Source: Minisyncoccota bacterium (GTDB lineage Bacteria; Patescibacteriota; Minisyncoccia; UBA6257). From it: a DNA stretch of 64,000 nucleotides. Position 1 is the stretch's first letter; every line of letters begins with the position of its first letter. This document shows, piece after piece, positions 1,306 to 61,734 of the stretch. The stretch is from assembly GCA_028694995.1 (NCBI GenBank), contig JAQVJU010000001.1:15314-79313 (forward strand). Reading direction: 5' to 3'. The notes beneath the pieces are model-generated. The model made no database searches. It had not been told where the DNA came from and worked only from the letters and a program-made list of their open reading frames with translations. Made by a program: the position numbers and the translations under genes.

Positions 1306-1613
1306 GCCGAGGTAGCTCAGTGGTAGAGCGTTTGCCTAAATCTTTGGGCCAATTCATAGTAATATGAATTGCAAACTGGGTGAAATCGGAAAAACCCAAG
1401 TATAATTTTGGGCAATTCCGAGCCAAGCCTATTTAAATTAAATTTAAACAGGAAGGTGTAGAGACTATCTTTTTTAAGAGTAGGGGCAAATAAATATTTG
1501 CTTCAAAGCGCCCAGCCCCTATAAATAGGGTGATGATATAGTCCAAACTCTAAAGTAATTTAGAGAATGTTCGGAAGAGCAAAGCGTCCGGTGTTCGATT
1601 CACCGCCTCGGCA
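1306..1613 (+). tRNA. tRNA-Phe (anticodon GAA) interrupted by a group I intron; exon 1 1306-1337, exon 2 1574-1613, no CCA encoded
   Basis: 5' half GCCGAGG-TA-GCTCAGTGGTAGAGC-G-TTTGC-CT and 3' half GAAGA-GCAAA-GCGTC-CGGTG-TTCGATT-CACCG-CCTCGGC-A form a complete cloverleaf only when joined; D-arm and variable loop resemble canonical bacterial tRNA-Phe. Confidence 0.7.
1338..1573 (+). ncRNA. group I self-splicing intron (236 nt) inserted between U33 and G34 of tRNA-Phe
   Basis: P1: exon GCCU pairs with intron GGGC, with the U.G wobble at the splice site. P10: intron UCUUU just 5' of the guide pairs with 3' exon GAAGA. P2 hairpin CAATTCATA/TATGAATTG. P7 strands GACUAU / AUAGUC lie within the conserved S-like element GAUAUAGUCC. 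Terminal G at 1573. Confidence 0.7.
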
Positions 1614-2847: not shown

Positions 2848-2929
2848 GGTCGACCTTTTAAGCTAATATTTGACTCTCTTTATTATATCAAAAGAGTTAA
2901 GTAAAGTAAAACCTTTTAGTAAAGGGCTC

Positions 2930-17709: not shown

Positions 17710-17781
17710 CCCCCTGTAGTTTAATGGATAGAATGCGGGATTGCGGATCCCGTGATCGAGGTTCGACTCCTCGCAGGGGGA
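17710..17781 (+). tRNA. tRNA-Arg (anticodon GCG), no CCA encoded
   Basis: Acceptor CCCCCTG/CAGGGGG, D-loop AATGGATAGAAT is Arg-like, anticodon stem CGGGA/TCCCG with loop TTGCGGA, T-loop TTCGACT. Confidence 0.7.
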
Positions 17782-17784
17782 CTT

Positions 17785-19953
17785 ATGAATTCTGTTATCA
17801 AGCTCTCTGATTCAGTTTCTAAAATACGCGGTATCGGACCGCGTTATTTAAAATATCTAGAAAAATTAGGTATTAAAACTATCAAAGATTTACTTTGGTA
17901 TTTTCCTTTTCGTTATGAAGATTTTGCTAAGATTAAAAAGATTAATGAATTAGAGCCAGATATTAAAACCTCTGTAAGAGGAATTGTAAAAAAAATGGAT
18001 ATTAGGCGCAGTTTCCGAAAAAAAATGTTTATCTTAGAGGCTTTAATAGAAGATGAAACAGGAGAAATTACTGCTATTTGGTTTAATCAACCTTATTTAA
18101 AAAAGAATATTCCTATTGGCTCTATTGTTTCCTTATCAGGAAAAATAACTCAAAAAGGAAAAAAATTCATTATCTCCAGTCCAGCTTATGAAGTAATTTC
18201 CTTTTCAGCAACAAATAAAAATCTTCCTAAAGAAACCTTGCATACAGGACGCTTAGTTCCTGTTTATTCAGAAACTCAAGGATTAAGTTCCCGGGCATTG
18301 CGTTATTTTATAAAACCATTATTAAAAACAACTATTAATCTCAAAGAACCAATACCAGATTTCCTAATGGAAAAATACAAATTAATGAATTTATCACAAG
18401 CTCTCCAACAGATTCATTTTCCTTCTTCTTTATTTTTAGCTCAAAAAGCCAAAGAAAGATTTATCTTTGAATCACTTTTGCTTTCTCAAATTTTTCTTTT
18501 AAAAAATAAAAAAAGAAATTCTCTTATAAAAGCTCCTCAAATTAACTTAAATGTTCCCTTACTTCAAAAGTTTGTAAAATCTCTGCCTTTTACCCTAACT
18601 GATTGTCAAAAAAAAGCTATCTGGGAAATAGCTAAAAACTTAAACCAAAGCCCAATGAACCGTCTTTTAGAAGGAGAGGTTGGTTCAGGAAAAACTATAG
18701 TTGCTATGAGCGCAGCTTTATTAGCTATAAAGTCAAATTATCAGGTAGCTTTAATGGCCCCAACTGAAATTTTGGCCCAACAACACTACGATAAATTTAA
18801 AAGTTTCCTATCTCCTTTTAATTTAAAAATTGCTTTACTCACTTCTTCAAAAGCTAAAATTTATGACAATGAATTAGAAGGTGATATTTCAAAAAAAGCC
18901 CTTTATAAAACAATTTCTTCTCCTCTTATAGATATTCCTATTATTACTATTGGCACTCATGCTTTAATTCAAAAAAATGTTCGTTTTAGTCGCTTGGGTC
19001 TAATAATTGTTGATGAACAACATCGTTTTGGGGTTGAACAAAGAAAAAAACTCATTTCAAAAAATGATAATCAAAAAGAAATCCCTCATCTCTTATCAAT
19101 GACCGCCACTCCAATCCCTCGCACCTTAGCCTTGGCTTTTTACGGGGATTTAGATCTTTCTGTTTTAGATGAATTACCAAAAGAAAGAAAAAAAATCATC
19201 ACTGAAATCATCACTGAAAAAAACAAAAACAAAGTTTATGAATTTATTCGTCAGGAAATAAAAAAAGGGCGCCAGGCCTTTGTTATCTGTCCTCGAATTG
19301 AAGAAACTGAAAATTCAGATGTAAAAGCAAAAGATCTTCTTGATTTATCTGTAAAACTAAATTATGAGGTTAAGGCCGTTAAAAAAGAACATCAAAAATT
19401 AAGCCAGGATATTTTCCCTGATTTAAAAATTGGAATGCTTCATGGGAAAATGCTACCAAAAGAAAAAGAAAAGATTATGCAAGATTTTATTAAAAACAAG
19501 ACTAATATCCTAGTTTCTACTTCTGTTATTGAGGTGGGTATAGATATTCCCAATGCTTCAATTATGATTATTGAAGGCGCTGAGCATTTTGGCTTAGCTC
19601 AACTTCATCAATTCAGAGGACGCATTGGCAGATCTGTTCATCAATCCTATTGTTTTATTTTCACAGAAGCTCCTTATCAACAAACTGCCAAACGTTTAAA
19701 GATTTTAGAAAAATGTCATGATGGATTTCGCTTAGCAGAAATAGATTTATCCCTAAGAGGTCCGGGTGAATTCTTAGGCACCAAACAATCAGGTATTCCA
19801 GATTTAGTTATGAGCTCTCTTCTTAATAAAGAATTTATAGAAAAAGTCCACCAAGAAGCAAAAGAAATTTTAAAACAAGATTTTTCATTAAAAAAATGGC
19901 CTTTGTTATTGGCCAATTTTCAAGATTTTTCCAAAAATACTCTTCAACAATAA
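17785..19953 (+). CDS. recG: ATP-dependent DNA helicase RecG (ORF-track start 17752 trimmed, since it overlaps the tRNA)
   Basis: Wedge domain, Walker A GEVGSGKT, DEQH box, helicase C motifs. Confidence 0.9.
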   Translation: MNSVIKLSDSVSKIRGIGPRYLKYLEKLGIKTIKDLLWYFPFRYEDFAKIKKINELEPDIKTSVRGIVKKMDIRRSFRKKMFILEALIEDETGEITAIWFNQPYLKKNIPIGSIVSLSGKITQKGKKFIISSPAYEVISFSATNKNLPKETLHTGRLVPVYSETQGLSSRALRYFIKPLLKTTINLKEPIPDFLMEKYKLMNLSQALQQIHFPSSLFLAQKAKERFIFESLLLSQIFLLKNKKRNSLIKAPQINLNVPLLQKFVKSLPFTLTDCQKKAIWEIAKNLNQSPMNRLLEGEVGSGKTIVAMSAALLAIKSNYQVALMAPTEILAQQHYDKFKSFLSPFNLKIALLTSSKAKIYDNELEGDISKKALYKTISSPLIDIPIITIGTHALIQKNVRFSRLGLIIVDEQHRFGVEQRKKLISKNDNQKEIPHLLSMTATPIPRTLALAFYGDLDLSVLDELPKERKKIITEIITEKNKNKVYEFIRQEIKKGRQAFVICPRIEETENSDVKAKDLLDLSVKLNYEVKAVKKEHQKLSQDIFPDLKIGMLHGKMLPKEKEKIMQDFIKNKTNILVSTSVIEVGIDIPNASIMIIEGAEHFGLAQLHQFRGRIGRSVHQSYCFIFTEAPYQQTAKRLKILEKCHDGFRLAEIDLSLRGPGEFLGTKQSGIPDLVMSSLLNKEFIEKVHQEAKEILKQDFSLKKWPLLLANFQDFSKNTLQQ

Positions 19954-22579: not shown

Positions 22580-22655
22580 TGGTGGGCGTAGATGGAATTG
22601 AACCATCGGCCTCCACTTTATAAGAGTGGCGCTCTAACCACTGAGCTATACGCCC
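22580..22655 (-). tRNA. tRNA-Ile (anticodon UAU), CCA encoded; 1 nt from tRNA-Val
   Basis: Reverse complement GGGCGTA-TA-GCTCAGTGGTTAGAGC-G-CCACT-CTTATAA-AGTGG-AGGCC-GATGG-TTCAATT-CCATC-TACGCCC-ACCA. Confidence 0.8.
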
Positions 22656-39071: not shown

Positions 39072-40139
39072 ATGTTAAAAAGAATAAAAAATTGGTTTTG
39101 GCCTACAAAAGAGAATAATTTTCATCCTGGTATTTTAAGTGATCGGGCTATTTCCATATTTATTCTTTTGTTTTTATTAGTCAAGGTTATCTTTAGTTTT
39201 AATCTTATTTTAGTAAAACAATCCTCTCTTTTTGCTGATGTAAGCGCTCAGGAGATTTTTCAATTAACTAATGATATTAGAAAACAAAGTGGTTTAACAC
39301 CAGTTTTAGAAAATTCTTTATTAAATCAAGCTGCGAGATATAAAGCTGAAGATATGTTGCAACATTCTTATTTTAGTCATTTCAGCCCTGCGGGAATTTC
39401 CCCTTGGTTTTGGATAGAAAAAGCTGGATATGATTATTATTATGCCGGAGAGAATTTAGCAATGAATTTTTTAGATAGCGAAGAAGTTGTTAAAGGCTGG
39501 TTTAATTCTCCTCGTCATCGAGATAATCTCTTAAATAAAAACTATCAGGAAATGGGTATTGCTGTTATCTCTGGTGATTTTAATAAAGAAGGAATTAATA
39601 GAATCTTAGTGGTTCAATTATTTGGCGCTAAAAAACACCAACCTTCAACACCAATAGCTTTAGCACAAGAACCAGAAACAACCCCAGAAAAAGAAACTGT
39701 CATTCCCTCAGAACAACATATAGAAGAATCTTTTGAGCAAACCCCTAGTGAAGTTTTATCTGAACAGGAACAACCAACTACTGAACCAACTGAGATTGCA
39801 TCAAGTAAGCCAACCATTCCTATAGAAACTACTCAAGAAGAAAGTCTTGTTCAACCTGAGCCAGAAATACCAGTGGCAACAGTATTATTAGAACAACAAA
39901 ACATTTTAAATAAAATAAACAACAATACTAGAAACCAAGTAGATATTATTAATAAAATTATCGCTGTTTTCATAATCTCTTTTGGTTTAATAATACTGTT
40001 TGGTATTGTTTTACAAAGACAATCTATTGATATTGGTATTTCTGAATTAGTTCTTAGAAGCTTTATTGTTATTATTTTAGGAATTTCATTTTTCACTTTT
40101 CAATTAGAAAGCATTATTGGAAACTTAATGATTTATTAA
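39072..40139 (+). CDS. CAP/SCP (PR-1-like, YkwD-type) domain protein with acidic linker and C-terminal TM helices
   Basis: NQAARYKAEDMLQHSYFSHFSP...GENLAMNF...VKGWFNSPRHRDNLLNKNYQEMGIAV matches the CAP domain pattern. Confidence 0.6.
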   Translation: MLKRIKNWFWPTKENNFHPGILSDRAISIFILLFLLVKVIFSFNLILVKQSSLFADVSAQEIFQLTNDIRKQSGLTPVLENSLLNQAARYKAEDMLQHSYFSHFSPAGISPWFWIEKAGYDYYYAGENLAMNFLDSEEVVKGWFNSPRHRDNLLNKNYQEMGIAVISGDFNKEGINRILVVQLFGAKKHQPSTPIALAQEPETTPEKETVIPSEQHIEESFEQTPSEVLSEQEQPTTEPTEIASSKPTIPIETTQEESLVQPEPEIPVATVLLEQQNILNKINNNTRNQVDIINKIIAVFIISFGLIILFGIVLQRQSIDIGISELVLRSFIVIILGISFFTFQLESIIGNLMIY

Positions 40140-40141
40140 AG

Positions 40142-40858
40142 ATGACTACTGATGTAAAAATTTCATTGTTTGCTTTTTTATTTCTCTTTTTGGGTCTTTT
40201 TTTTATATTCAATGGCAGCGCTTTTCCTACCTGGTTTAATTACAAATTTCAAGAAATAACCCATCTTTTCCAAAGCGAATTATTCCGTTCTCCAAAATTC
40301 CTGACTAAAATCCCTGTAGTTGAAAAAGATGGATTAAATTCTAATGTTCTTTTTCCTTTTTTTTCTCCAACTGAAACAGGAAATGTAGTTTTACCGCCTA
40401 TTCCTGAAGAGGCAAATGAAACAAATATTATTGAATTACCAAAATTCAATATTAAAGCCCCAATCATTACTGTAAAAACTCCTGATTTGGATTTAATTTA
40501 CAAAGAGCTTAAAAAAGGAGTGGTGCTTTATCCAGGATCAACTAATCCTAAACAAGGTTATTCTATTATTATCGGTCATAGCTCCCAATATCCATGGGAA
40601 AAAGGTAATTATAAATCAGTTTTTTCTTTATTAAATGAATTGGATATTGGTGACCAAATCTATATTTTTTGGGAGCAACAACCTTTAGTTTTTGAATTTG
40701 CAGATAAGAAAATTTTTATCCCCTGGCCTAAAGGCTCAGAGACCACAGAAACAATCTTTCCCCCAAGCAATGAGGAAACAATTCTTATTCTTCAAAGTTG
40801 CTGGCCGGTGGGTGTAGCCTCAAAGCGAGTTGCGGTAAAGCTGGTTCTTGTGAAATAA
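40142..40858 (+). CDS. sortase-family transpeptidase (putative)
   Basis: N-terminal TM; His (IIGHSSQ), Cys in LILQSCWPVG (TLxTC-like) and downstream Arg (SKRVAVK) with the spacing of the sortase catalytic triad. Confidence 0.5.
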   Translation: MTTDVKISLFAFLFLFLGLFFIFNGSAFPTWFNYKFQEITHLFQSELFRSPKFLTKIPVVEKDGLNSNVLFPFFSPTETGNVVLPPIPEEANETNIIELPKFNIKAPIITVKTPDLDLIYKELKKGVVLYPGSTNPKQGYSIIIGHSSQYPWEKGNYKSVFSLLNELDIGDQIYIFWEQQPLVFEFADKKIFIPWPKGSETTETIFPPSNEETILILQSCWPVGVASKRVAVKLVLVK

Positions 40859-45417: not shown

Positions 45418-45501
45418 GCCGCGGTGGCGGAACTGGCAGACGCAATAGGTTTAGGACCTATTAGGGTTTTCCCTGTGGGAGTTCAAATCTCCCCCGCGGC
45501 A
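45418..45501 (+). tRNA. tRNA-Leu (anticodon UAG), type II, no CCA encoded
   Basis: GCCGCGG-TG-GCG..CGC-A-ATAGG-TTTAGGA-CCTAT- long variable arm -GGGAG-TTCAAAT-CTCCC-CCGCGGC-A. Confidence 0.85.
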
Positions 45502-45513
45502 CCCTATTAATTA

Positions 45514-45539
45514 AAAACTCCGTTTTAAACGGAGTTTTT
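45514..45539. terminator. bidirectional rho-independent terminator
   Basis: AAAACTCCGTT-TTA-AACGGAGTTTT. Confidence 0.7.
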
Positions 45540-45568
45540 AATTTGTAATTTAATCTCTTTTTTACTTC

Positions 45569-45916
45569 TTAGAAACCTGTAATACTTACACCTAAGAAAT
45601 TAGCCACTAGGTAAATTAATACCTTAGCCAATAAAGCTATTCCTACTCCTATCAAAGCATAAACCAAAGAGTTTAATGCTTTTTTGGCTTTTTCTGCATC
45701 TCCAGCTGCTGTTATATATTGCCAACCTGCAAAAACTATCATAATCGCTGCTAGAAAAAGCACAATATTAAAAAACCAATTCAAAACTTTTGTTAATATT
45801 ACCCAGATATCAGTTAATCCTCCAGATGTTCCTGGGGGGATAGTTGCTGGCTGACCAAAACAAGGCAAAGCAATAAAAAAGCTTAAAAGTAAAACTGGGA
45901 CGATATATTTTTCCAT
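45569..45916 (-). CDS. small secreted helical-hairpin protein, paralog A (VirB2/TrbC-pilin-like architecture)
   Basis: Signal peptide (..ALPCFGQ), then two hydrophobic helices joined by a charged loop: IVFAGWQYITAAGDAEKAKKALNSLVYALIGVGIALLA. Confidence 0.5.
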   Translation of the reverse strand: MEKYIVPVLLLSFFIALPCFGQPATIPPGTSGGLTDIWVILTKVLNWFFNIVLFLAAIMIVFAGWQYITAAGDAEKAKKALNSLVYALIGVGIALLAKVLIYLVANFLGVSITGF

Positions 45917-46033
45917 TTTGTTTATTGAAATTAATTATATTCGACCTTTAAAAATTATAACAAATTTTAAGCAAATACTCAATAAAAATGATGCTAATTA
46001 ATAATACAATCATGTATTCTTAAGATAGTTTTT

Positions 46034-46417
46034 TTATTTACCTACTTCACTCATTTCGTTTATTGTATTGTTTCCTATTGTTAAATCAACTTCAAGAACA
46101 TTTTCAATTACTTTAGTTATTGCGCTTGCCATTAAAACTACACCAATTCCTACTAAAGCCCAAATTAAAGTCTTTTGAGCTGTTTCTATCTTTTGCTGAT
46201 TTCCAGCAGAAGTCATATATAAATAACCTGCATAAACAATGAGTATTGCACTTACTATTACAGCCAAACTCTTTAAGAAATTAATTATAGCTTCTATTAA
46301 ACTGGTAATGGTTGTAATTTCTTTAAAGGGATTTTTAAATGCAAAATCTTGCCCTAATGCTGGTAAAGCTATTAAGAAAATTGTTAATAGACTAATTATA
46401 AAAATAAGATTTTTCAT
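46034..46417 (-). CDS. small secreted helical-hairpin protein, paralog B
   Basis: Signal peptide (..ALPALGQ); core ILIVYAGYLYMTSAGNQQKIETAQKTLIWALVGIGVVLMA aligns with paralogs A and C. Confidence 0.5.
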   Translation of the reverse strand: MKNLIFIISLLTIFLIALPALGQDFAFKNPFKEITTITSLIEAIINFLKSLAVIVSAILIVYAGYLYMTSAGNQQKIETAQKTLIWALVGIGVVLMASAITKVIENVLEVDLTIGNNTINEMSEVGK

Positions 46418-46436
46418 TTTGTTAAGTTAATTAAGA

Positions 46437-47276
46437 TTAATGAATATACGAAGGGATACAATAAACAAAAGCCTTGCCTTGTGGCTGCTTTGTTGCTGTG
46501 TTTTCAAAAGTACAAGTCCAACCAGTTTTTGTACTCTCTGATTGCAAAATCTCAGTTGTAGAATCTAAGGCAAAACAAAAACCTTCTTTTAAATAATAAT
46601 AATTTGGTTCACAATAAGCTGTTCCAAAAGCCTGCTTGCAATCTGCTTCCATATAGTCATAACAATAGATTGACTCTTCTGCCCATTTACCATAGCTAGC
46701 TACATCCCAATATTTTTGCTCTATTTCAGTTTTCCTGCTTTGTATTTGTTCCTCAAGACTGGGGGTGGGAGGAAGATTGCTGTCAGAATTAGAGGAAGAA
46801 AAGCTTGGCGGTTGTGAAGATTGAGGAGGTTGTGGGGATTGTGGCTTCACCTCTTCGCATTCAATTTTCCACCAAGTGCCAGTATAATACTCTGGGTCAA
46901 GTTCTCCTGTGAAATTAATAAGAAACCAGAATATTGTATTAACAATTACCCAAGCAGCTAAAATAATTATTAGCCCCATGATAGCATTGTAAATTGTTTT
47001 TTGTCCTGTTCTGATATTCTCTTCTTTACCTGCTGAAAAAATCCAAAGAAACCCTCCATAAACTATTAAAATAACAATAATTAAGAAAGCTATTTCTATG
47101 GCAAAATACACTACATTTTGAGCTAATTGTAATAGATGACAGATATTACATTCTGGTTCTGAAGGCCCTCCACAAGGAACTAATCCAGCTGCCTGAACAA
47201 ACAAAGGAAAACAATAAAAACCAATCATTAAGAAAAAGATAATTAATTTCTGAGTTATTTTGTTTGTATTTTTCAT
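46437..47276 (-). CDS. paralog C: helical-hairpin module fused to a Pro/Gln/Ser linker and a Cys-rich C-terminal ectodomain (279 aa)
   Basis: Core ILIVYGGFLWIFSAGKEENIRTGQKTIYNAIMGLIIILAA; linker PQSPQPPQSSQPPSFSSSNSDS; C-terminal domain with about 8 Cys. Confidence 0.5.
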   Translation of the reverse strand: MKNTNKITQKLIIFFLMIGFYCFPLFVQAAGLVPCGGPSEPECNICHLLQLAQNVVYFAIEIAFLIIVILIVYGGFLWIFSAGKEENIRTGQKTIYNAIMGLIIILAAWVIVNTIFWFLINFTGELDPEYYTGTWWKIECEEVKPQSPQPPQSSQPPSFSSSNSDSNLPPTPSLEEQIQSRKTEIEQKYWDVASYGKWAEESIYCYDYMEADCKQAFGTAYCEPNYYYLKEGFCFALDSTTEILQSESTKTGWTCTFENTATKQPQGKAFVYCIPSYIH

Positions 47277-47313: not shown

Positions 47314-48627
47314 TCATTGTCTTTGTTTCCAAAAAAGATTAATGTTGTCTCGTGCTATTCCAATAGCTCTTGCTGGTTCTTCACCTTTTAAAAGAACCCC
47401 GTTAATCATTTCTTGAAAAATCTTTTTTATATCTTGAAAATTGTATTGATACCAATTATAAGTTGTTAAAAGTTGCCTGATAAAAACTCCACTATCTAAA
47501 TCATTGAGAGATTCATTAATCAAGTCAAGCCGAGCCGGGGGGTTTTTAGTTTGATTAAAATAAGATTGAGCAATGTTCTTTTGATTAAAAAATTTCAAAA
47601 AATCCCAACTTGCTTTTTGATACTGAGAAGACTGGATCACTGCTAAAACCATTGTTTGTCCATAATTAATTCTTGAAGAAGAACCATCAATAAATTGAGA
47701 TAAAGCAGTAACTCCATAACTTAAATTAGGACTGTATCCCTCTATTATTTTTTTTGCTTGATTATATCCTATCATCATCACTGTTTCTCCTCGACTAAAA
47801 GCAATTATTGAATTATCCATATTATCATTCCAGGTATAATATCGAGAATAAGGGTTTGCAAATTGAGTATAAAAATTTATAGCTTCTTCTCCAGGGACTA
47901 TAGATTTATTCCCTCTTTCAACAGCTCTATCAAAAATTACCCTTTTTTCAGATAAATCAACCATTTCACTGCCATATTGCATCATTAGGGCTGAGAGAAT
48001 ATCTGTTTCCCATTCAATATTAGAAGCCAAACCTAAGGCAATTGCTGCTCTGCTAATGCGTCCTTGGGGATTCACTTGCCTTAGAGTAGGTATTAAGTCA
48101 AGAATCTCTTCCCAAGTGGTTGGCGGCAAAACTATATTATAATGCTTAAAAACATCCTGGTTATAATAAAGAACTAAAGTATCAGTATAAAGAGGTAAAC
48201 CTAATAAATGATTATCTTCAATTATTCCACTCAGAGATATTGGCGAATAATCCTGCTTTAAATCAAAAACATTAAAATATTTATCTGTATTTAAATCCAA
48301 AGGGTAGATTTTATCTTGATAAACAGGCAACCAATTATCTTGAAGCATTAAAATATCAGGCGCCTGATTATCTGCAAAAGCCCTTAAAAGATCTTCATGA
48401 TAAGTCTTTTCGTCTTTTAAGGTATAGTTAACAGTAATATGAGGATATGATTGATTGTAAGCTTGAGTTATGAGCTCAAAAGCCAAAGGATCATCTCTTA
48501 TTCCCCAAATTTCTAAAGTAATTGGTTTTGGGCGGACTTTTCTAAAAAAAATACCAGCAAAAGCAATCAAAAAAATAACAACAAAAGCGATTAAAACAAT
48601 TTTTTTTTGATGAGATGTTAAAGACAT
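47314..48627 (-). CDS. ABC transporter substrate-binding protein, family 1 (sugar type), membrane-anchored
   Basis: N-terminal TM, then an SBP_bac_1-like region starting ITLEIWGIRDDP...ITVNY. Confidence 0.5.
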   Translation of the reverse strand: MSLTSHQKKIVLIAFVVIFLIAFAGIFFRKVRPKPITLEIWGIRDDPLAFELITQAYNQSYPHITVNYTLKDEKTYHEDLLRAFADNQAPDILMLQDNWLPVYQDKIYPLDLNTDKYFNVFDLKQDYSPISLSGIIEDNHLLGLPLYTDTLVLYYNQDVFKHYNIVLPPTTWEEILDLIPTLRQVNPQGRISRAAIALGLASNIEWETDILSALMMQYGSEMVDLSEKRVIFDRAVERGNKSIVPGEEAINFYTQFANPYSRYYTWNDNMDNSIIAFSRGETVMMIGYNQAKKIIEGYSPNLSYGVTALSQFIDGSSSRINYGQTMVLAVIQSSQYQKASWDFLKFFNQKNIAQSYFNQTKNPPARLDLINESLNDLDSGVFIRQLLTTYNWYQYNFQDIKKIFQEMINGVLLKGEEPARAIGIARDNINLFWKQRQ

Positions 48628-48639
48628 GATTTTTATATT

Positions 48640-49185
48640 TTAGGCTCTGGCTTTGGGTAATTTTGCCAAAAACCCATAATGAGTAATGCCTAAAGATAAT
48701 TCTCTTTCTAATTGAAAACCTGATTTTTCAATTAGGTTTAATGCATCTTCTTTTGAAAAAGGCAATAATTGTTTTTGCGCTGGTAGTTTATCAGGATTCC
48801 ACTCTATAACTACAAGATAGCTTTCTGGTTTTAAAACTCTCTTAGCTTCTAAAAGAAACTTTTCTTTATTTTCTACTTGAAAAAGAACATTGGCTATTAA
48901 AACTAAATCACAAGAACCATTAGGTAAATTACTGCCTCTTTCCTCTTCTAAATTAGCCCATCGTGTTTCTATAATCGGCAAAAGGCCTTCTGTTTTTGCC
49001 CTGAATTCCAAAGCCTCTAAAGAAGGTTTCCAAATATCAAGAGAAATCACTTTTCCTGAAGGCCTGACAAGTTTAGCCATGGCCAAACTAAAATAACCTG
49101 AACCGCTGCCAAAATCAGCCACTACCATTCCTTCTTTTAAAGGTAAGGTTCTGATTATTTCTTCTGGATTAAAAAAAGTATTCAT
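48640..49185 (-). CDS. class I SAM-dependent methyltransferase
   Basis: Motif I VADFGSGSGYFSLAMA and an acidic residue after beta-2 (ISLDIW). Confidence 0.7.
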   Translation of the reverse strand: MNTFFNPEEIIRTLPLKEGMVVADFGSGSGYFSLAMAKLVRPSGKVISLDIWKPSLEALEFRAKTEGLLPIIETRWANLEEERGSNLPNGSCDLVLIANVLFQVENKEKFLLEAKRVLKPESYLVVIEWNPDKLPAQKQLLPFSKEDALNLIEKSGFQLERELSLGITHYGFLAKLPKARA

Positions 49186-52374: not shown

Positions 52375-53163
52375 CTAATAAACTGATTTATTAAACACTC
52401 GTGTACTTAAGAAAGTAATCACAATATTAAACCCTAAAAGAATAAAAATACTCAAAGGCAAAGAATGTGAAGTAATTAATAATATTTCTTCCTTAGGCAA
52501 AGAATCAGCAAGAATCACCCAACGTAAAGCATCAATGCCATAATTTAAGGGATTATAAAAAGCTATTCTGGCCATCCATTCTGGCGCATTGCTCAAAGGG
52601 AAAAAAGCTCCAGAAAGAAAAGCCATTGGGGCAAAAATAAGCTGGGAGATAATGGAAAAATTCTCTATTTTCTTAAGACGAGAAACTAAAAAAATCCCTA
52701 AAGACGCCATGCCATAACTAATAAGAAAGATAACTAACATTGCTTTAATAAAAAGAAATTTACTAAAATCAAGGCCTAAATAGGGAATAATCAATAAAAT
52801 CAAAGCCCCTTGAATCAAAGCAGTTGTTGTTGCGCCTAAGATTTTTCCTAAGATAATAGTTGAGCGACTGATTGGCGATACTAAAATTTCTTTTAAAAAT
52901 CCAAATTCTCTATCCCAAACTATGGAGATTGTTGAAGAAACAGCCATAATACTAATACTTAAACCTAAGATACCAGGAAAAAAGAATTGAACAAAATCAT
53001 AATTTAAAGTGGAAACTGGAAACATGGTTTTTAATCCAGTGCCAAAAAAAATCAAGATAATTATTGGTAAAAATATGGAAGTAAAAAATTTAACCGCATT
53101 GCGTAAATAAATAAGAACCTCCCGATACCAGATTATATAAAGTGTTTTTAATTGTTTACCCAT
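52375..53163 (-). CDS. ABC-2 family exporter permease
   Basis: 262 aa, 6 TM, ABC-2 topology; overlaps the upstream ATPase gene. Confidence 0.7.
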   Translation of the reverse strand: MGKQLKTLYIIWYREVLIYLRNAVKFFTSIFLPIIILIFFGTGLKTMFPVSTLNYDFVQFFFPGILGLSISIMAVSSTISIVWDREFGFLKEILVSPISRSTIILGKILGATTTALIQGALILLIIPYLGLDFSKFLFIKAMLVIFLISYGMASLGIFLVSRLKKIENFSIISQLIFAPMAFLSGAFFPLSNAPEWMARIAFYNPLNYGIDALRWVILADSLPKEEILLITSHSLPLSIFILLGFNIVITFLSTRVFNKSVY

Positions 53164-54202
53164 TGTTTTTAAAAAATGAAAACAGAGAACAAAGAGTGAA
53201 AGGCTCTGACTCTTCTTCTATTTCTTTATTATCTCTGATTTTTCTACCAGTAATTTCCAAAAAAACATCTTCTAGAGTCGGCCTTCTTAATTCCATGGAA
53301 ATAATACGTGGACTAATTGCCTTTACTAAAACAGGCAGAAACTTATCACCATTTTCTACTTTAACCCTTAACTCTTTGCCAATCCATTTAATTGAATGAT
53401 TGGGAAACTTTGTTTGAATTTCTTTTTCTGCAATCTGATTATTCTCTGTTCTTAAGAAAATAATATCTTCTCCGATGGTTTTTTTTAAATTTTCTGGTGT
53501 GTCGAAAGCAACAATATCTCCCTGATCCAAAATAGCTATTCGGTCACAATTTTCAGCTTCGCTTAAATACTGAGTCGTTAAGAAAATGGTAATATTTTTC
53601 TTTTTTCTTAGGTTAAAAATGTAATCCCAAATTTTTCTTCTTGTCTGAGGATCTAAACCAATAGTTGGTTCATCTAGAAACAAAATCTGCGGCCAATGAA
53701 TTAAAGCCCTTACAAGCTCTAATCTTCTTTTCATACCACCAGAAAATGTTTCTACTCTAGCTTTCCTTCTATCCCAAAGCTCACAAAGTTTTAAAAGCTC
53801 TCTTCTGCGTTCAAGATATTCTTTCCTAGTTATGCCATAAAGCATTGCGTGAAGATACAAATTCTCTTCAGCTGTTAAATGATTATCTAAAATGGTTTCT
53901 TGGAAAACCAAACCAATAGAATTCCTAACTGCATTTGACTGATGAGTAATATGATAACCATTAACATAAGCCACGCCTGAACTTGGCTGTGAAAGAGTAC
54001 AAAGAATATTAATCGCTGTTGTTTTTCCAGCGCCATTAGGGCCTAAAAGACCAAAAACTTCCCCTTTTTTAACTGTAAAAGACACTCCATTAAGAGCCTT
54101 GATATGTTTGTATCTTTTTTTTAGGTTTTCTACCTGAATAACTTCTGAAATATTGTTTTGATTGTTTTCAATCTGCTCTTCTTTAGCCTTTAAGCTACTC
54201 AT
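53156..54202 (-). CDS. ABC transporter ATP-binding protein (ABC-2 exporter partner)
   Basis: Walker A GLLGPNGAGKTT, signature LSGGMKRRL, Walker B ILFLDEPT. Confidence 0.85.
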   Translation of the reverse strand: MSSLKAKEEQIENNQNNISEVIQVENLKKRYKHIKALNGVSFTVKKGEVFGLLGPNGAGKTTAINILCTLSQPSSGVAYVNGYHITHQSNAVRNSIGLVFQETILDNHLTAEENLYLHAMLYGITRKEYLERRRELLKLCELWDRRKARVETFSGGMKRRLELVRALIHWPQILFLDEPTIGLDPQTRRKIWDYIFNLRKKKNITIFLTTQYLSEAENCDRIAILDQGDIVAFDTPENLKKTIGEDIIFLRTENNQIAEKEIQTKFPNHSIKWIGKELRVKVENGDKFLPVLVKAISPRIISMELRRPTLEDVFLEITGRKIRDNKEIEEESEPFTLCSLFSFFKNNG

Positions 54203-55325: not shown

Positions 55326-55606
55326 AAAAAAGAAGATCTTAAACAGATCTCTTTTTATATTTTAACTCTTTTTTATCTAAAAATCAATTTGATTATGCAA
55401 TCTCTCTTGGTCTTAATGAGTGAAAACAAGAAAGTCTTTATCTGTTTAATATTCATTGACATACATTAAAGTTTGTGATAACTTTTATTTGCTTTAATAT
55501 ATTAATCATTAAAACTTCTTGACATTTCTTTTGTTTTGTGATAATATTAGATTATAATATTTTTAACTTTAATACAATTTAATTTTAAAATAAATTGAAT
55601 AAAAAC

Positions 55607-57526
55607 ATGACAATAATTAATTCACAAAAAATGAAAAAAACTTTAATCTTTTCCCTTTTATTAAGCGGAATTTTATTATTTAATATAATGCCTTTTTTTG
55701 CTGAGGCAGCTATTTTAGTTACTGGCACTAGAGAAAGCCATGATGCTAGTTATGTCTCAGTAGCCGTAGTTGATAGACCTCCTCATTGCGCTGATTGCAC
55801 CACAACTACTACTCGACCGCCTCACTGCACCACTACTACCACTACTAGACCTCCGCATTGCACCACTACTACCACTACTAGTACTACCAGGCCTCCTTAT
55901 TGCCAAACTTATAACTGTAATATTAATACTTGGCAATGCGTTGAAGCTCCATGTGGCACAGGACAATATTCTTCATTAACTAGTTGCCAAGCTAATTGCA
56001 AAGCTCCAATCACTCGTTACTCTTGCAATACAAACACTTGGCAATGTGTTGTTAATCCTTATGGACCATATACTTCTTTAAGTTCTTGCCAAACTAATTG
56101 TATATCTCCAATCACTCGTTATTCTTGTAATACTAATACTTGGCAATGTGTTATTGATTCTGTTGGACCATACACTTCTTTATCTACATGTCAGGCTAAC
56201 TGTAAAGCCCCAATAACTCGTTATTCTTGTAATACAAATACTTGGCAATGCTATCAAGATACTTATGGGCCATATACTTCTTTAAATTCTTGTCAAAATG
56301 ATTGTAAAGCTCCAGTAACCCGATATTCTTGTAATACAAATACTTGGCAATGCTATCAAGATACTTATGGGCCATATACTTCTTTAAATTCTTGTCAAAA
56401 TGATTGCCAATCTTCTGTTATTTCTCTTAATGTTTCTTGTTATGCCTCACCTAGCTCAGCACAAACTTATCAAACTATCACTTTTTACAGTAATGTTTCT
56501 GGAGGAACAGGAAATTATTCCTATTCTTGGTCTGGTTCAGCTTCTGGCAATCAATCTTATTCTCAAAGAAGCTTTAGCAACCCAGGCTCTTATACAGCCT
56601 TTTTAACTGTTTATGATTCACAAGGCAGAAGCGCCAATACTTCTTGTAGCACCTATGTTAGCAGTGGCAGTAATCAATGCCCTAATCCTCCAACCATAAA
56701 TCTTTGGGCTGACAAATACAGTGTTCAACAAGGGGAAACAACTTATCTTCGCTGGACTTCTAGTAATGCCAATTATTGTGTTGCCTCAAATGGCTGGAGC
56801 AATAACAAATCAACAAGCGGCATTGAAACAATCAGTCCAATTAGCAATACAACATATACCTTAACTTGTTATGGATATGGTAATTGTGGTTCTATATCTC
56901 AATCAGTTACTATTTACACTGCAACAACTCAAACTGGTTTAAATCTTACAAAATTAGGACGCAATCTCTCTGGTGGCAGTAGAGTTTATTCAAAGGTCAT
57001 TCAAGTATTAGAAAATGACATTATTGAATTCCATCTTACAGTGAGTGCCGGCAATAATGTTGATTTATATAATGTGATTGTTAAAGATCCATTACCTTCA
57101 GTTCTTACTTATATGCCTGGGACTACAAAAATAGGAGGGGTTACTCAACCCGATACTATTACTACAACTGGTTTATCTCTTGGTACTATTTATCAAAACA
57201 CTAGCAAGGTCATTACTTTTCAAGCTAGAAGTGGTCCTTCTTCTGTGTATTTAAGTCATACTAATACTGCTGAAGCAACAGCTAATAATCAAAACAAAGT
57301 AACAGATAGCGCAACTGTCACCTATGGATTAGTTGCTGGAGCCGCTACAGTAAAAACAGGTGTTAATAATTCATTGTTAATATCTTTTACTCTGAGCTTA
57401 ATGATTGCTTTTGCCATCTGGTGTTATCTTCGATTTAATCCTAGTGGGCAATTAGCTTTAGCAACTATAGAAAGAAAAACCCGTGATTCTTATCTTGCCC
57501 TTGCTCGTTATCGTAATCGTAAATAA
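55607..57526 (+). CDS. large repeat-containing cell-surface protein (about 640 aa; likely true start 55631, MKKTLIFSLLL..AEAA signal peptide), C-terminal TM anchor
   Basis: Signal peptide; Thr-rich TTTTTRPPHC x3; about 5.5 tandem 34-aa Cys modules (ITRYSCNTNTWQCV..YGPYTSLSSCQ.NC.AP); beta-rich C-terminal region; hydrophobic C-terminus LLISFTLSLMIAFAIWCYL. Confidence 0.55.
   Translation: MTIINSQKMKKTLIFSLLLSGILLFNIMPFFAEAAILVTGTRESHDASYVSVAVVDRPPHCADCTTTTTRPPHCTTTTTTRPPHCTTTTTTSTTRPPYCQTYNCNINTWQCVEAPCGTGQYSSLTSCQANCKAPITRYSCNTNTWQCVVNPYGPYTSLSSCQTNCISPITRYSCNTNTWQCVIDSVGPYTSLSTCQANCKAPITRYSCNTNTWQCYQDTYGPYTSLNSCQNDCKAPVTRYSCNTNTWQCYQDTYGPYTSLNSCQNDCQSSVISLNVSCYASPSSAQTYQTITFYSNVSGGTGNYSYSWSGSASGNQSYSQRSFSNPGSYTAFLTVYDSQGRSANTSCSTYVSSGSNQCPNPPTINLWADKYSVQQGETTYLRWTSSNANYCVASNGWSNNKSTSGIETISPISNTTYTLTCYGYGNCGSISQSVTIYTATTQTGLNLTKLGRNLSGGSRVYSKVIQVLENDIIEFHLTVSAGNNVDLYNVIVKDPLPSVLTYMPGTTKIGGVTQPDTITTTGLSLGTIYQNTSKVITFQARSGPSSVYLSHTNTAEATANNQNKVTDSATVTYGLVAGAATVKTGVNNSLLISFTLSLMIAFAIWCYLRFNPSGQLALATIERKTRDSYLALARYRNRK
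55896..56410 (+). repeat. in-frame tandem 102-bp (34-codon) repeats; the last two copies are nearly identical (82 bp perfectly identical)
   Basis: ATTCTTGTAATACAAATACTTGGCAATGCTATCAAGATACTTATGGGCCATATACTTCTTTAAATTCTTGTCAAAATGATTG occurs at 56223 and again at 56325. Confidence 0.8.
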
Positions 57527-59210: not shown

Positions 59211-60800
59211 TTAAGCAAACATTAGTAATTCAGGTTTAAAAATCATCAAAATTCCAATAAGGAGCATTAAAATTCCTCCAATTAAATAGGAAAGTCGCGT
59301 GTATTTATTTGTCAAACCAGTTACTTTTAAAGTTAACATGGCGCCTATAAAAACAATTAAATCATCGAGCATGAAAATAAAGATATACAATAACATGTAA
59401 GAATAATATTGCCAGTTAGTTAAATTGCTTAAAGCCAAAGTTTGGGTAAATACAACTGGAAAACCAATTGAACAAACTAATTCTATCAAATTAACCATGC
59501 CCGCTAAAAGAATAATACCTATCAAGGACAAGATTAAAGATTTCTTATGAACAATTGATTTTACTTTATCTAGAATAGATTTTTTTTGTTCAACATTGGT
59601 CGCCTTGCAAGCAGCATCTGGATTAATAAAATAATCTCTTAAATTGTAAATACCACTACTAATGGCTACTAATCCTATTAATAATCTAATCCAGAAAATA
59701 AACCCAAGGAAAAGAATTAAGTTCAGCCAAGCTGCCATAAAAAGAAAGTAGACAAAGGCTGAAGCAATAATAAAAGTAAAGCCCAAGATCCACATTTTCT
59801 TTCTATCCTTAATTTTAATCAGAAAACTGATTAAAAAAACTAACACCCACATTGCGCAAGGATTAAACCCATCAAGCCCGCCTAAAACAATAGATAGAAC
59901 TGGCAAAGAAAGATCTTTTGTTTTTACTTCACCTATTAAAGGGATTTTAATCTTATCTGGTAGTGGTTTTTCTTTGGTTGATTCTCCAAAATGAGTAAAA
60001 CGAGTGATAATACTTTCTACTAAATCAGGACATTCTTGTTCTATATAGCATTTTATTGATTCTTCTATCATCTTACCTGAAACTTCTTCATTGTGCCAAC
60101 CTATTATAATTTTTTCTCCAATTACCAATAAAGGTAAATCTGGATTCTGGATACCAAACTCCTCTATTATTTGTTTTAATATTTCAGCGTTTTTAGTCTG
60201 AGTAGTATTAAGATAAACAATATTAAGATTAGGGTATTTGTCTTTAGTTTCATCTAAATAATTTTTCTCTTGGGCACATAATGGACAACCATCAGTCCAA
60301 AAAAGATAAGCTTTGATTTCTTCTTGATTGACTAAAGTGGTTGTTGTGGTGCTTGTGGGTGGAGTTTGTTGTGTGGTCATAGTTGTTTGATCAGAAAAAA
60401 GCATGGCTTTAATTGAATCTGAACAAACATTATTCAAACAATTCAAAACCAACTCTTCTATCTGTTGGCCCGTGGTTTCATCTTGGTGATAACCAATCAA
60501 AGGTTCATCATTTATTATCATTATGGGCACACCAGGAATATCTATCTCTAGTTTTTCTCCTATCTCAATTAATAAATCACGATTTGCTTTGTTGTTATAA
60601 ATCTCAAAACTATAAACCTTAAGAGAAGGATATTTTGATTCCAAAGACTTTAAAAATAATTCCTCTTGAGCACAATGAGGACAGCCCTGACCCCAGAAGA
60701 AATAAAGATTAATTTCATCTTCCTGGGCAAAAGAATTTTTAGCAACGCAGCCAAAAATTATAACAAGACCAATTAAGCCTAATAAAAAATATTTTTTCAT
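59211..60800 (-). CDS. fusion protein: two thioredoxin-fold (CxxC) domains + CcdA/DsbD-like transmembrane disulfide-transfer domain
   Basis: Signal peptide; WGQGCPHCAQE and WTDGCPLCAQE active sites separated by a Thr-rich linker; C-terminal polytopic domain with GLDGFNPCAMWVL motif. Confidence 0.55.
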   Translation of the reverse strand: MKKYFLLGLIGLVIIFGCVAKNSFAQEDEINLYFFWGQGCPHCAQEELFLKSLESKYPSLKVYSFEIYNNKANRDLLIEIGEKLEIDIPGVPIMIINDEPLIGYHQDETTGQQIEELVLNCLNNVCSDSIKAMLFSDQTTMTTQQTPPTSTTTTTLVNQEEIKAYLFWTDGCPLCAQEKNYLDETKDKYPNLNIVYLNTTQTKNAEILKQIIEEFGIQNPDLPLLVIGEKIIIGWHNEEVSGKMIEESIKCYIEQECPDLVESIITRFTHFGESTKEKPLPDKIKIPLIGEVKTKDLSLPVLSIVLGGLDGFNPCAMWVLVFLISFLIKIKDRKKMWILGFTFIIASAFVYFLFMAAWLNLILFLGFIFWIRLLIGLVAISSGIYNLRDYFINPDAACKATNVEQKKSILDKVKSIVHKKSLILSLIGIILLAGMVNLIELVCSIGFPVVFTQTLALSNLTNWQYYSYMLLYIFIFMLDDLIVFIGAMLTLKVTGLTNKYTRLSYLIGGILMLLIGILMIFKPELLMFA

Positions 60801-60810
60801 TATCTTTAAA

Positions 60811-61734
60811 TTAATTATTCAATTCTTTGATATATGAATAGGCAGAAAGGGCAGCTGAGGCGCCTTGGCCAACAGCAACAACAATTTGCTTAAAAGGAAA
60901 ATCACAAACATCACCAGCAACAAAAATCCCTTTATGAGAAGTTTCCATGGTTTTTAAATTACTCATAATTTCCCTTTTTTCATTTAAATCAATGAATCCT
61001 TTTACAAACTCTGTATTTGGCATAACACCAATTTGAATAAAGCAACCAGCTGTTTCTATTTCATGAATTTTTTTTGTCTTTCGTTCCTGATAAACAATTT
61101 TTTTTAATTCTCCATCCCCTTCAAAACTTAAAACTTCTGCATTAGTGATTATTTGAATTCTTGATTGATTTTCTATTTCTTCTTTTAAGATCTCATCACA
61201 AGTTAAATGATCCAAGTATTCTAATAAATAAATTTCTGAAGCAAATTTTAAAAGGCTAATTGCTGCTTCAGCTCCAGTGTTTCCGCCGCCAATTACTGCT
61301 ACTTTTTTATTTTCAAAAGCCTTTTCATCGCAAGTAAGGCAATAAGAAATTCCTTTTCCTATAAACCTCTCTTCATTTTTAATGTTTAATCTTTTTAATT
61401 CTGCGCCTGTGGCAATAATTATTGCTAGACTATTATATTCTTTTTCTTTAGTCTTCAACTTAAAACCAACTTTCAATTTTTCTATCTTAATAACTTCTTC
61501 ATAATTCTGTATGGTTATTTCATTTTGAACCAAATGATTATGAAATAATTTTAATAAATCCCTACCATTGATTTTTGGAAAACCAGGATAGTTTTCTATT
61601 CTCCAAGACAAGCCAACTTGACCTAAAAACTCTTTAGTAATTAATAATGTTTTTAACTTTTTCCGGGAAGCATAAATACCCGCGGTAATTCCAGCTGGAC
61701 CACCACCTAGAATAATTAAATCATATTGTGCCAT
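60811..61734 (-). CDS. trxB: thioredoxin-disulfide reductase-like FAD/NAD(P) oxidoreductase
   Basis: FAD motif IILGGGPAGITAGIYA, redox-active CLTCDE, NAD motif VAVIGGGNTGAEAA. Confidence 0.7.
   Translation of the reverse strand: MAQYDLIILGGGPAGITAGIYASRKKLKTLLITKEFLGQVGLSWRIENYPGFPKINGRDLLKLFHNHLVQNEITIQNYEEVIKIEKLKVGFKLKTKEKEYNSLAIIIATGAELKRLNIKNEERFIGKGISYCLTCDEKAFENKKVAVIGGGNTGAEAAISLLKFASEIYLLEYLDHLTCDEILKEEIENQSRIQIITNAEVLSFEGDGELKKIVYQERKTKKIHEIETAGCFIQIGVMPNTEFVKGFIDLNEKREIMSNLKTMETSHKGIFVAGDVCDFPFKQIVVAVGQGASAALSAYSYIKELNN

Follow-up and report, generated by a model that had tools for sequence, protein, structure and literature searches.

Genes and features at the locus

The window analyzed here is the whole 64-kb stretch of DNA. 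It is a low-GC, tRNA-dense core-chromosome stretch of a Paceibacterota-like genome. An array of three minus-strand genes, named C, B, and A in their order of reading, lies within it together with the following features.

45418-45503, convergent with A: tRNA-Leu gene
45509..45543, no strand assigned: palindromic terminator-like hairpin of 16 pairs, flanked on either side by T runs, between the tRNA-Leu gene and the stop of A
45569..45916, minus: gene A, predicted pilin of 115 aa, last gene of the array
45934..45982, minus: promoter-like sites in the B-A gap, TTGAGT-17-TATAAT preceded by TG, and TTGTTA-18-TATAAT
45941-45947, minus: leader heptamer AGGTCGA, within the promoter-like stretch of the B-A gap
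46034..46417, minus: gene B, predicted pilin of 127 aa, middle gene of the array
46437..47276, minus: gene C, predicted pilin of 279 aa, first gene of the array
46440..46760, minus: ectodomain of C (residues 173-279 in the AlphaFold2 model), with six conserved Cys
47314..48627, minus: membrane-anchored family-1 SBP homolog (SBP_bac_1) whose anchor is an N-terminal hydrophobic segment; its gene immediately precedes the pilin array
48640..49185, minus: small cytoplasmic class I SAM-dependent methyltransferase (Methyltransf_31/11/25), 12 nt upstream of the SBP gene

The first-pass annotation described three tandem minus-strand genes of these lengths, encoding paralogs that each carry a signal peptide, two hydrophobic helices, and a charged loop. 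The ORF coordinates agree with this arrangement, with intergenic gaps of 19 nt (C-B) and 117 nt (B-A). The paralogy is borne out by significant mutual alignments in pairwise BLASTP (A vs B, 3.9e-22 with 33% identity over 105 aa; B vs C, 8.4e-14; A vs C, 1.3e-9). Identity within the array is low, at 27-35%. When the window was translated in six frames and scanned with an HMM of the three cores, no other paralog was identified.

The topology is likewise seen in both hydropathy and AlphaFold2 models. In a Kyte-Doolittle scan, each protein has an N-terminal hydrophobic segment and two further long hydrophobic stretches. The model of A has helices at residues 5-20, 34-69, and 74-107, and that of C has helices at 4-29, 45-79, and 85-122. 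The hairpins have pLDDT values of about 85-93 in these two models, and the hairpin loops of the trio bear 2-3 Lys/Arg. The predicted cleavage sites, assigned by eye using the -3/-1 rule, fall between CFG and Q, ALG and Q, and VQA and A. Protein A consists of a signal peptide (approximately residues 1-21) and the hairpin (34-69 and 74-107), and its C-terminus is a conserved "..G.xxTF" sequence.

Family assignment and T4SS context

The earlier call of a VirB2/TrbC-pilin-like architecture is supported by the PF18895 T4SS_pilin model (gathering cut-off 26.6 bits), which all three proteins exceed with scores of 49.0 (A), 36.4 (B), and 36.8 bits (C). The PF04956 TrbC/VirB2 model has a gathering cut-off of 27.9 bits; B lies above it at 32.8 bits, and A (14.9) and C (16.5) lie below. 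NCBIfam NF045849 (pilin-like conjugal transfer protein, equivalog cut-off 40) gives 41.3 bits for B, 37.8 for A, and 10.9 for C. Nearly all homologs carry a precomputed PF18895 label, and the homologs of C carry the NCBI name "pilin [Candidatus Paceibacterota]". A profile of 85 array pilins gave no significant match to solved conjugative pilins among PDB sequences.

Small membrane proteins unrelated to pilins, such as holins, ATPase c-subunits, or transporter accessory subunits, could resemble the trio by composition alone. There are weak sub-threshold matches to DctQ, Tetraspanin, EssA, and other membrane families, and the fold matches are of the non-specific kind typical of helical hairpins. 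Each of these alternative matches is far under its own cut-off, however, and B exceeds two pilin models in addition to the PF18895 model that all three exceed. F-ATPase subunit c gave no match, and a check for any unrelated housekeeping family that could explain the trio identified none. Given the PF18895 scores of all three proteins, this reading is disfavored and is considered very improbable. Judged from these profile matches, A, B, and C are most likely VirB2-like pilins of the Patescibacteria-type T4SS_pilin family.

A published "VirB2 array" is defined as at least two PF04956/PF18895 pilin genes in tandem or one gene apart (PMC12102498), and the trio falls within this definition. It is a new case of the tandem VirB2-like pilin arrays already published in Patescibacteria (PMC12102498, PMC10633639). 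In that survey, VirB4 is present in 2,417 of 3,035 (80%) Patescibacteria assemblies, tandem VirB2 arrays number 441 and have a mean within-array identity of 25%, and a pilin gene lies near virB4 in only 1,135 of 1,948 assemblies (PMC12102498). Ca. Southlakia epibionticum requires its pilin series to grow as an epibiont (PMC10633639).

No gene for a T4SS ATPase (VirB4, VirD4) or channel subunit (VirB6, VirB3, TrsD) was identified in the 64-kb window, whose scanned ORFs matched housekeeping and envelope genes only. The first-pass annotation had reported VirB4 and VirD4 to be missing, and Pfam scans of essentially all ORFs of at least 90 aa agree. No integrase, relaxase, or VirB4-type ATPase is present in the window, hence there is no ICE context. 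At 80 related SBP-pilin loci, T4SS families are absent from the 25 most frequent families in 72 ORFs of at least 450 aa within 8 kb on either side.

Conserved gene order and the ectodomain of C

Pfam matches confirm the SBP and the SAM methyltransferase as the same-strand neighbors named earlier. The SBP matches SBP_bac_1 (PF01547) at 1e-25 and 91.9 bits, and its nearest solved relatives in the PDB are sugar- and oligosaccharide-binding proteins (best E 2.6e-24). Its gene is probably co-transcribed with the pilin array. No binding-protein-dependent permease is found in the window, and the sole ABC genes there (52375-54202) are an ABC-2/DrrA-type pair. The SBP as part of a normal importer was also considered and set aside; the genes that lie between pilin sub-arrays at four related loci (L032, L037, L039, and L043) have no Pfam match and no homolog in the window.

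The GyrA-methyltransferase-SBP-pilin operon is conserved in many genomes. Of 75 evaluable genomes with an SBP orthologue, 74 have a pilin gene immediately after it; the median gap is 7 nt, and the two genes often overlap. The methyltransferase orthologue immediately precedes the SBP gene at 55 of 73 loci; at seven more it lies downstream, at most 3 kb away. The SBP-pilin junction is kept where GyrA and the methyltransferase are missing or rearranged. The SBP and the methyltransferase are proposed to be co-expressed partners of the pilins. To our knowledge, tight and near-universal coupling to an SBP homolog is a feature of no known T4SS. No report of an SBP-pilin link in Patescibacteria was found in a literature search of incomplete coverage, so the link may already be reported.

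Arrays among the relatives have 1 to 6 genes and can be sorted by position. In 49 of 55 arrays, C is the best match of the pilin encoded first. An LVxC..C..C motif is confined to first genes: 37 of 55 have it, and none of the 86 middle genes or the 55 last genes does. The last gene is a conserved A-type of about 115-120 aa. The 41 homologs of A are mostly 112-128 aa in length and mostly 50-68% identical to it. The median gap in related arrays is 75.5 nt before the last gene vs 10 nt before middle genes, and all 11 orthologous leaders compared retain the near-consensus promoter-like element and AGGTCGA. From its length, conservation, and predicted own promoter, A is most likely the candidate major subunit.

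Protein C contains (N- to C-terminal) a signal peptide (1-29), a Cys-bearing ecto-segment GLVPCGG..C..C, the hairpin (45-122), a "W..IEC" segment with C140, a linker (143-167), and a six-Cys C-terminal domain (173-279). The linker is Pro/Ser/Gln-rich and disordered, with pLDDT below 50. The first-pass annotation had counted about 8 Cys in a C-terminal domain of about 130 aa. Both figures are corrected here: C holds 11 Cys, of which six are in that domain, and the folded part in the AlphaFold2 model is about 105 aa (residues ~173-279). The other five are one in the signal peptide, C35, C43, and C46 before helix 1, and C140 just after helix 2. In 41 homologs of C, L32, V33, C35, C43, C46, G75, G101, I104, and C140 are invariant, and the C-type first genes combine an invariant LVPC..C..C…C cysteine set with a variable ectodomain. 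The outside segments are probably clamped by disulfides between C35/C43/C46 and C140.

The modeled ectodomain of C is a six-Cys β-sandwich of one helix and six β-strands, with pLDDT of 81-92. It has no Pfam match and no Foldseek match at E of 0.001 or below. The best Foldseek match is the H-type lectin SLL-2 (3wmp, E 0.016, TM 0.49 on the target); the weak matches also include Helix pomatia agglutinin (E 0.14-0.17) and the R-pyocin fibre tip. From these weak lectin-like matches to a predicted fold, the domain may plausibly be an adhesin module, and the variable ectodomain could recognize a host-surface ligand. The domain is rare, with 6 phmmer matches in 1.84 billion cluster representatives, and 4 of the 6 are pilin fusions. 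The other two (P0089 and P0090) are Cna-B-like repeat proteins in which the last ~35 residues alone align, and this was judged to be motif-level similarity. Across the pilin family, members are fused to many ectodomains, including PKD, SLT/lysozyme-like, and Cys-rich modules.

A close relative (L092) was compared with the window. A, B, and C are 89-95% identical between the two, and the neighboring housekeeping genes are 88-98% identical. The differences sit in the mature N-termini, the linker of C, and the tail of B. This would be expected if these parts are exposed.

Proposed function and alternative readings

A large part of bacterial diversity belongs to the Patescibacteria, which live attached to other microbes. 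Few envelope components have been shown to be essential for this attached lifestyle, and VirB2-like pilins are one of them, as established in one Saccharibacterium. As a pilin array, the trio is expected in such genomes and is no surprise. The locus presents a Paceibacterota-type array apart from a secretion machine, in a conserved operon that also encodes a methyltransferase and an orphan protein of the sugar-binding type. Its order is fixed, with an adhesin-like first gene and a conserved last gene that is predicted to be separately promoted, and it yields candidates for a major subunit, a host-binding subunit, and an unexpected partner protein.

The reading considered rather likely is that these VirB2-like pilins are specialized subunits of a filament for host contact, which a T4SS encoded elsewhere would assemble. 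The precursors of A, B, and C would be exported by Sec and their signal peptides cut off. The two helices would then form a membrane hairpin whose two ends lie outside the cell and whose Lys-bearing loop lies inside. A monoderm-type T4SS (VirB4/VirB6/TrsD/PrgI) would extract and polymerize the subunits; its genes would be located elsewhere on the chromosome, as in most Patescibacteria. The product would be a short surface filament or conduit for contact with the host cell. Protein A would be the bulk subunit because it is short and strongly conserved and has its own promoter-like sites upstream and a terminator-like hairpin after it. B would be a second structural subunit, and C would be a low-copy subunit displaying its ectodomain; B and C are most likely minor or adhesin subunits. 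From the position-specific subfamilies, it is proposed that the paralogs are specialized and not interchangeable. We know of no pilus of this type seen in any Patescibacterium in the literature found. This counts against the filament reading, as do several other observations: the window has no T4SS ATPase or channel genes, T4SS families are not among the most frequent ones in large ORFs at the related loci, the array-pilin profile matches no solved conjugative pilin by sequence, only B passes the TrbC/VirB2 model, and the coupling to an SBP homolog is foreign to known T4SSs.

The missing T4SS genes, in the window and among the most frequent large-ORF families at related loci, would also fit a T4SS-independent envelope complex, which is close to the lineage-specific surface system that the first-pass annotation offered as its alternative. 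The pilin-fold hairpins would then oligomerize as a membrane platform or anchor with no extracted pilus, and the platform, the tethered SBP homolog, and the ectodomain of C would capture host carbohydrates or hold the cell on its host. The near-constant SBP-pilin junction (74 of 75 loci, median gap 7 nt), which outlasts changes in GyrA and the methyltransferase, argues for such a complex, as do an SBP without a cognate permease in the window and the many ectodomain fusions, as if the hairpin were an anchor. This reading is nevertheless considered unlikely. Genes of the same Pfam family belong to the essential T4SS cluster in Ca. S. epibionticum, and 1,135 assemblies have them close to virB4. 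In addition, B passes the TrbC/VirB2 model, and a short, ectodomain-free A with a promoter of its own fits a polymerizing major subunit better than an anchor. By analogy with Bartonella and Anaplasma, VirB2 arrays of Patescibacteria have been suggested to serve antigenic or host-range variation, and the genes could accordingly be interchangeable major pilins kept for such variation. Identity within the trio is about as low as in the published arrays, and array size varies among relatives. The positional subfamilies are conserved, however, with C-type genes first and the Cys motif confined to first genes, A-type orthologues are mostly 50-68% identical across many genomes, and neither repeats nor recombination cassettes were noted. 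Because of this positional orthology and the ordinary divergence from L092, variation is rejected as the main explanation and is held to be improbable.

A bolder reading, to which we give limited credence, is that the methyltransferase-SBP-pilin operon is a distinct and ancient Patescibacteria module in which a VirB2-type filament or oligomer is functionally wired to a tethered carbohydrate-binding protein. This may be a host-contact or nutrient-capture organelle whose SBP senses or hands over host glycans, or the SBP may be an assembly or anchoring factor of C-type pilins. If true, the pilin fold and the SBP fold would serve here in a way unknown from any T4SS or ABC system.

The closest known systems are SEML1_0006-0019 of Ca. 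Southlakia epibionticum and the arrays of PMC12102498 (Quiñonero-Coronel et al. 2025; Wang et al. 2023, PMC10633639), which belong to the same PF18895/PF04956 families. They share with the trio tandem divergent paralogs (27-35% identity here, 25% mean there), Sec signal peptides, and a location on a Patescibacterium chromosome. Unlike them, the trio has no T4SS cluster around it in the window, its genes are ordered into position-specific subfamilies, and its first gene carries a putative Cys-clamped ecto-segment and a Cys-rich domain. Microgenomatia and Saccharimonadia are the groups emphasized in the published work, and no mention of an SBP link was found there (PMC12102498, PMC10633639). The kind of array is thus already known, and new here are the conserved SBP-pilin operon context, the ordered array, and the rare ectodomain of C.

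VirB2/TrbC conjugative pilins (PF04956) have the same long signal peptide, two hydrophobic helices, and short basic loop. They differ in belonging to T4SSs of Gram-negative bacteria, whereas the organism here is thought to be monoderm, in lying with VirB5, VirB6, and VirB4, none of which is near the trio, and in having no folded-ectodomain fusion like that of C. A VirB5-type minor pilin or tip adhesin may be comparable in function, with C as the proposed low-copy subunit presenting a binding module; it has no sequence or fold relation to C, which has a VirB2-like hairpin of its own, extended by a further domain. The Mbov_0395/MMCAP2_0565 protein of Mycoplasma ICEs (NF045849) is a similarly small pilin-like protein of wall-less or monoderm, small-genome bacteria, but the trio lies outside any ICE context in the window and C has no match to it. 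The archaeal conjugation-like (Ced/Ted) pilus pilin of Aeropyrum pernix (PDB 8dfu) is also counted among the closest known systems.

Family membership and predicted topology of the pilin-like trio

The three adjacent pilin-like genes, A, B, and C, are transcribed in the order C, B, A. Directly upstream of C is the gene for a membrane-anchored family 1 solute-binding protein homolog (SBP), preceded by a class I SAM methyltransferase gene.

Genes of the pilin-like cluster
45569-45916, minus strand, A, 115 aa
46034-46417, minus strand, B, 127 aa
46437-47276, minus strand, C, 279 aa
47314-48627, minus strand, SBP
48640-49185, minus strand, methyltransferase

The first-pass annotation had described these ORFs, with the same lengths, as paralogs of VirB2/TrbC-pilin-like architecture. 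The observation is sound and its interpretation is correct. Judged by sequence, A, B, and C are true paralogs, with all three pairs significant in BLASTP (A-B, E 3.9e-22; B-C, E 8.4e-14; A-C, E 1.3e-9). All three score above the curated Pfam threshold for PF18895 (T4SS_pilin). B is additionally above the cut-offs of PF04956 (TrbC/VirB2) and of the NCBIfam equivalog NF045849 (Mycoplasma ICE pilin-like conjugal transfer protein), with A slightly under the latter. Every other family match of the trio is far under its own cut-off, so no housekeeping family accounts for it. C has 46 relatives among 5.8 billion proteins, nearly all labeled PF18895 and named by NCBI as 'pilin [Candidatus Paceibacterota bacterium]'. 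A has 41 relatives, mostly 112-128 aa in length and mostly 50-68% identical to A. The A-type pilins share a conserved '..TF' ending.

Each protein has a signal-like hydrophobic N-terminus followed by two long hydrophobic stretches. AlphaFold2 models, built with alignments of 40-41 homologs, contain a helical hairpin in A (helices 34-69 and 74-107) and in C (helices 45-79 and 85-122), with a hairpin pLDDT of about 85-93. The connecting loop carries 2-3 Lys/Arg in each of the three proteins. By the positive-inside rule, this loop would be cytoplasmic and both ends of the mature protein outside; Sec export and cleavage are presumed for all three. Because helical hairpins are generic, the fold evidence is weak. 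A fold search with the A model returned generic hairpins only, and a profile of 85 array pilins matched no solved pilin by sequence.

Cysteines and ectodomain of pilin C

Pilin C contains 11 Cys: one within the signal peptide, three ahead of helix 1 (C35, C43, and C46), one immediately past helix 2 (C140), and six within the C-terminal domain, where about eight had been reported. Residues 143-167 are a Pro/Gln/Ser linker modeled as disordered, and residues ~173-279 are a confidently modeled domain of one helix and six β-strands. L32, V33, C35, C43, C46, G75, G101, I104, and C140 are invariant across 41 C-type homologs. The three Cys before helix 1 and the one after helix 2, predicted to lie outside, suggest disulfides that would tie the two ecto-segments together. 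The stretch 59211-61734 (minus strand) encodes a 529-aa protein with weak thioredoxin/glutaredoxin-like matches, adjoining a thioredoxin-reductase-type flavoprotein; the 529-aa protein is a candidate for the thiol-disulfide chemistry that the many extracytoplasmic Cys of C would require.

Beyond C140, the C homologs are modular and variable. They carry, for example, the module of the window, a 'CxxCG…ECLSLGxC…FGPGGKC' module, other Cys-rich modules, SLT/lysozyme-like domains, or short tails ending in GGGGGAGAF. The module of the window is rare, with six matches in 1.84 billion cluster representatives, four of which are pilin fusions. Its best Foldseek matches, none significant, are the lectin-like SLL-2 (E 0.016) and Helix pomatia agglutinin, and also include an R-pyocin fibre tip. 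In several C homologs (P0037, P0039, P0040, P0043, P0044, and P0022/25/27/34), the hairpin is fused to very different ectodomains, with SLT/lysozyme-like domains C-terminal and PKD domains N-terminal to it.

Conserved context, array order, and leader of pilin A

The window is about 31% GC with 20 tRNA genes, and its core genes include ValRS, GyrA, PNPase, FtsH, IF-2, RecG, ArgRS, TrpRS, RNase J/Y, and HU. Metagenomic contigs carry identical or near-identical copies of the locus, with Paceibacterota MAGs as the relatives. The window is core chromosome of a Patescibacterium rather than a mobile element. When essentially all ORFs of at least 90 aa were scanned with Pfam, there was no VirB4, VirB6, VirD4, TrsD, or relaxase in the window, in keeping with the absence of VirB4/VirD4-type ATPases noted at first pass, and the window has no fourth pilin paralog.

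Relatives of falling similarity repeat the arrangement GyrA, methyltransferase, SBP_bac_1, pilins, including a distant genome (L010) with different flanks and a five-pilin array whose first two members have N-terminal PKD domains. An alignment of five SBP orthologues was used as the query to take the 80 best loci from GTDB species representatives (30-65% identity; labels such as Paceibacterota, Portnoy-, Yanofsky-, and Falkowbacteria), in which pilins were called with an HMM iterated from the three cores. In 74 of the 75 loci with enough downstream sequence, the gene next after the SBP gene is a same-strand pilin gene. The gap between them has a median of 7 nt and is at most 40 nt in 58 of the 74, and some of the genes overlap. 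One to six pilin genes lie behind the SBP gene, three being commonest, and the junction is kept where GyrA and the methyltransferase are absent. Of 73 loci, 55 have the methyltransferase orthologue immediately upstream of the SBP gene; in another clade (seven loci) it is downstream, after the SBP, pilin, and HTH/Glucodextran_B protein genes in that order. The frequent families among the 72 ORFs of at least 450 aa in these loci are FtsH, VanW, SMC, ComM-like, and Lon, with no T4SS family among them.

The solved proteins most closely related to the SBP bind sugars or oligosaccharides. The window contains no cognate permease for it, the nearby ABC pair being ABC-2/DrrA-type. A second orphan solute-binding protein (SBP_bac_5, 554 aa; 7080-8744, plus strand) also lacks adjoining transporter genes.

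Among arrays of at least two genes, C is the best match of the first gene in 49 of 55. Of the 55 first genes, 37 contain the motif [LVI][VIL]xC[GND]…C..C, which is missing from all 86 middle and all 55 last genes. Last genes are 119 aa long at the median. In four loci (L032 12841-16523, L039 11013-14582, L043 4302-8116, and L037 3059-5458), a pair of large pilins near the SBP gene is separated from small pilins further downstream by a conserved set of three or four genes on the same strand. The intervening genes have no Pfam match and no homolog in the window, and two are membrane- or secreted-protein-like.

The gaps along the cluster are 45 nt (GyrA to methyltransferase), 12 nt (methyltransferase to SBP), 37 nt (SBP to C), 19 nt (C to B), and 117 nt (B to A). 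A terminator-like palindromic hairpin follows A at 45509-45543. The B-A gap contains a near-consensus promoter-like site, TTGAGT-17-TATAAT, with a TG ahead of it. The promoter scan alone proves nothing, since this AT-rich region has 26 matches and shuffled sequence would be expected to give 26.3. Conservation carries more weight: all 11 orthologous leaders (the window and L005, L009, L012, L013, L015-L017, and L020-L022) have both a TTGAyw-16-to-18-TATAAT element and the AGGTCGA heptamer, with 23-33 nt of pure A/T between the heptamer and the ATG. In the window, (A)AGGTCGA is at 45941-45948 (minus strand), downstream of the promoter-like element. The sole other AAGGTCGA in the window, at 2850-2857 (minus strand), comes after the strong promoter that precedes the HU gene (2524-2796), and the motif may belong to the leaders of highly expressed genes. 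In all arrays of at least three genes taken together, the last pilin is preceded by a median gap of 75.5 nt and middle pilins by one of 10 nt, which fits separate and strong transcription of A.

Interpretation of the trio

A survey of 3,035 Patescibacteria genomes (Quiñonero-Coronel et al. 2025, PMC12102498) used PF04956, PF18895, and other profiles. VirB4 was present in 2,417 assemblies, and VirB2-like pilins in 1,948 of the VirB4-containing assemblies, near virB4 in 1,135 of those. The same study reported 441 tandem pilin arrays of 2-11 genes with a mean within-array identity of 25%, so the trio is a further member of an array kind already described. Ca. Southlakia epibionticum cannot grow as an epibiont without the pilin series within its T4SS cluster (Wang et al. 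2023, PMC10633639), and a 2025 review considers Patescibacteria systems unique among monoderms in their potential for conjugative-type pili (PMC12857230). The SBP-pilin link is not mentioned in the literature, as far as this could be searched; the coupling to the SBP and the position-specific subfamilies extend the published class modestly.

A T4SS-dependent filament is, on balance, the probable product of the trio. A distant T4SS would assemble A, B, and C, with A as the putative major subunit and C as a minor subunit bearing an adhesin. A T4SS-independent membrane or surface complex associated with the SBP is a rather unlikely alternative, in favor of which stand the conserved SBP junction and the absence of T4SS genes nearby. 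Antigenic variation is improbable. Identity to a close relative (L092) is 90.7% for A, 89.0% for B, and 95.0% for C, and that of neighboring genes is 87.6% to 97.8%. The differences are located in the N-termini of mature A and B, the B tail, and the C linker, with the hairpins and the C-terminal domain of C nearly unchanged; a hypervariable antigen array does not diverge in this way. That the pilin resemblance is an artefact is very hard to credit, given the curated cut-offs passed by all three proteins and the two further ones passed by B.

Further surface proteins are encoded in the window at 39072-40858 (plus strand), 15134-16867 (minus strand), and 55595-57526 (plus strand): a CAP-domain protein, with a sortase next to it downstream, and two large DUF11/CLIPPER-repeat proteins. 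Relatives keep the CAP-sortase pair and one of the CLIPPER genes in synteny with the pilin operon. A full-length group I catalytic intron (Rfam, 99.6 bits, E 1.4e-24) is present at 1328-1565 (plus strand), flanked by a 156-aa ORF and an S1-domain gene, with no surrounding tRNA or rRNA gene called. The mechanical GTG start of the RecG ORF (17752-19953, plus strand) overlaps a tRNA-Arg gene (17710-17782, plus strand), so the true start is probably further downstream. ARAGORN identified a tRNA-Ile with anticodon UAU at 22580-22655 (minus strand), which is unusual in bacteria, where AUA is normally read by a lysidine-modified CAU tRNA.
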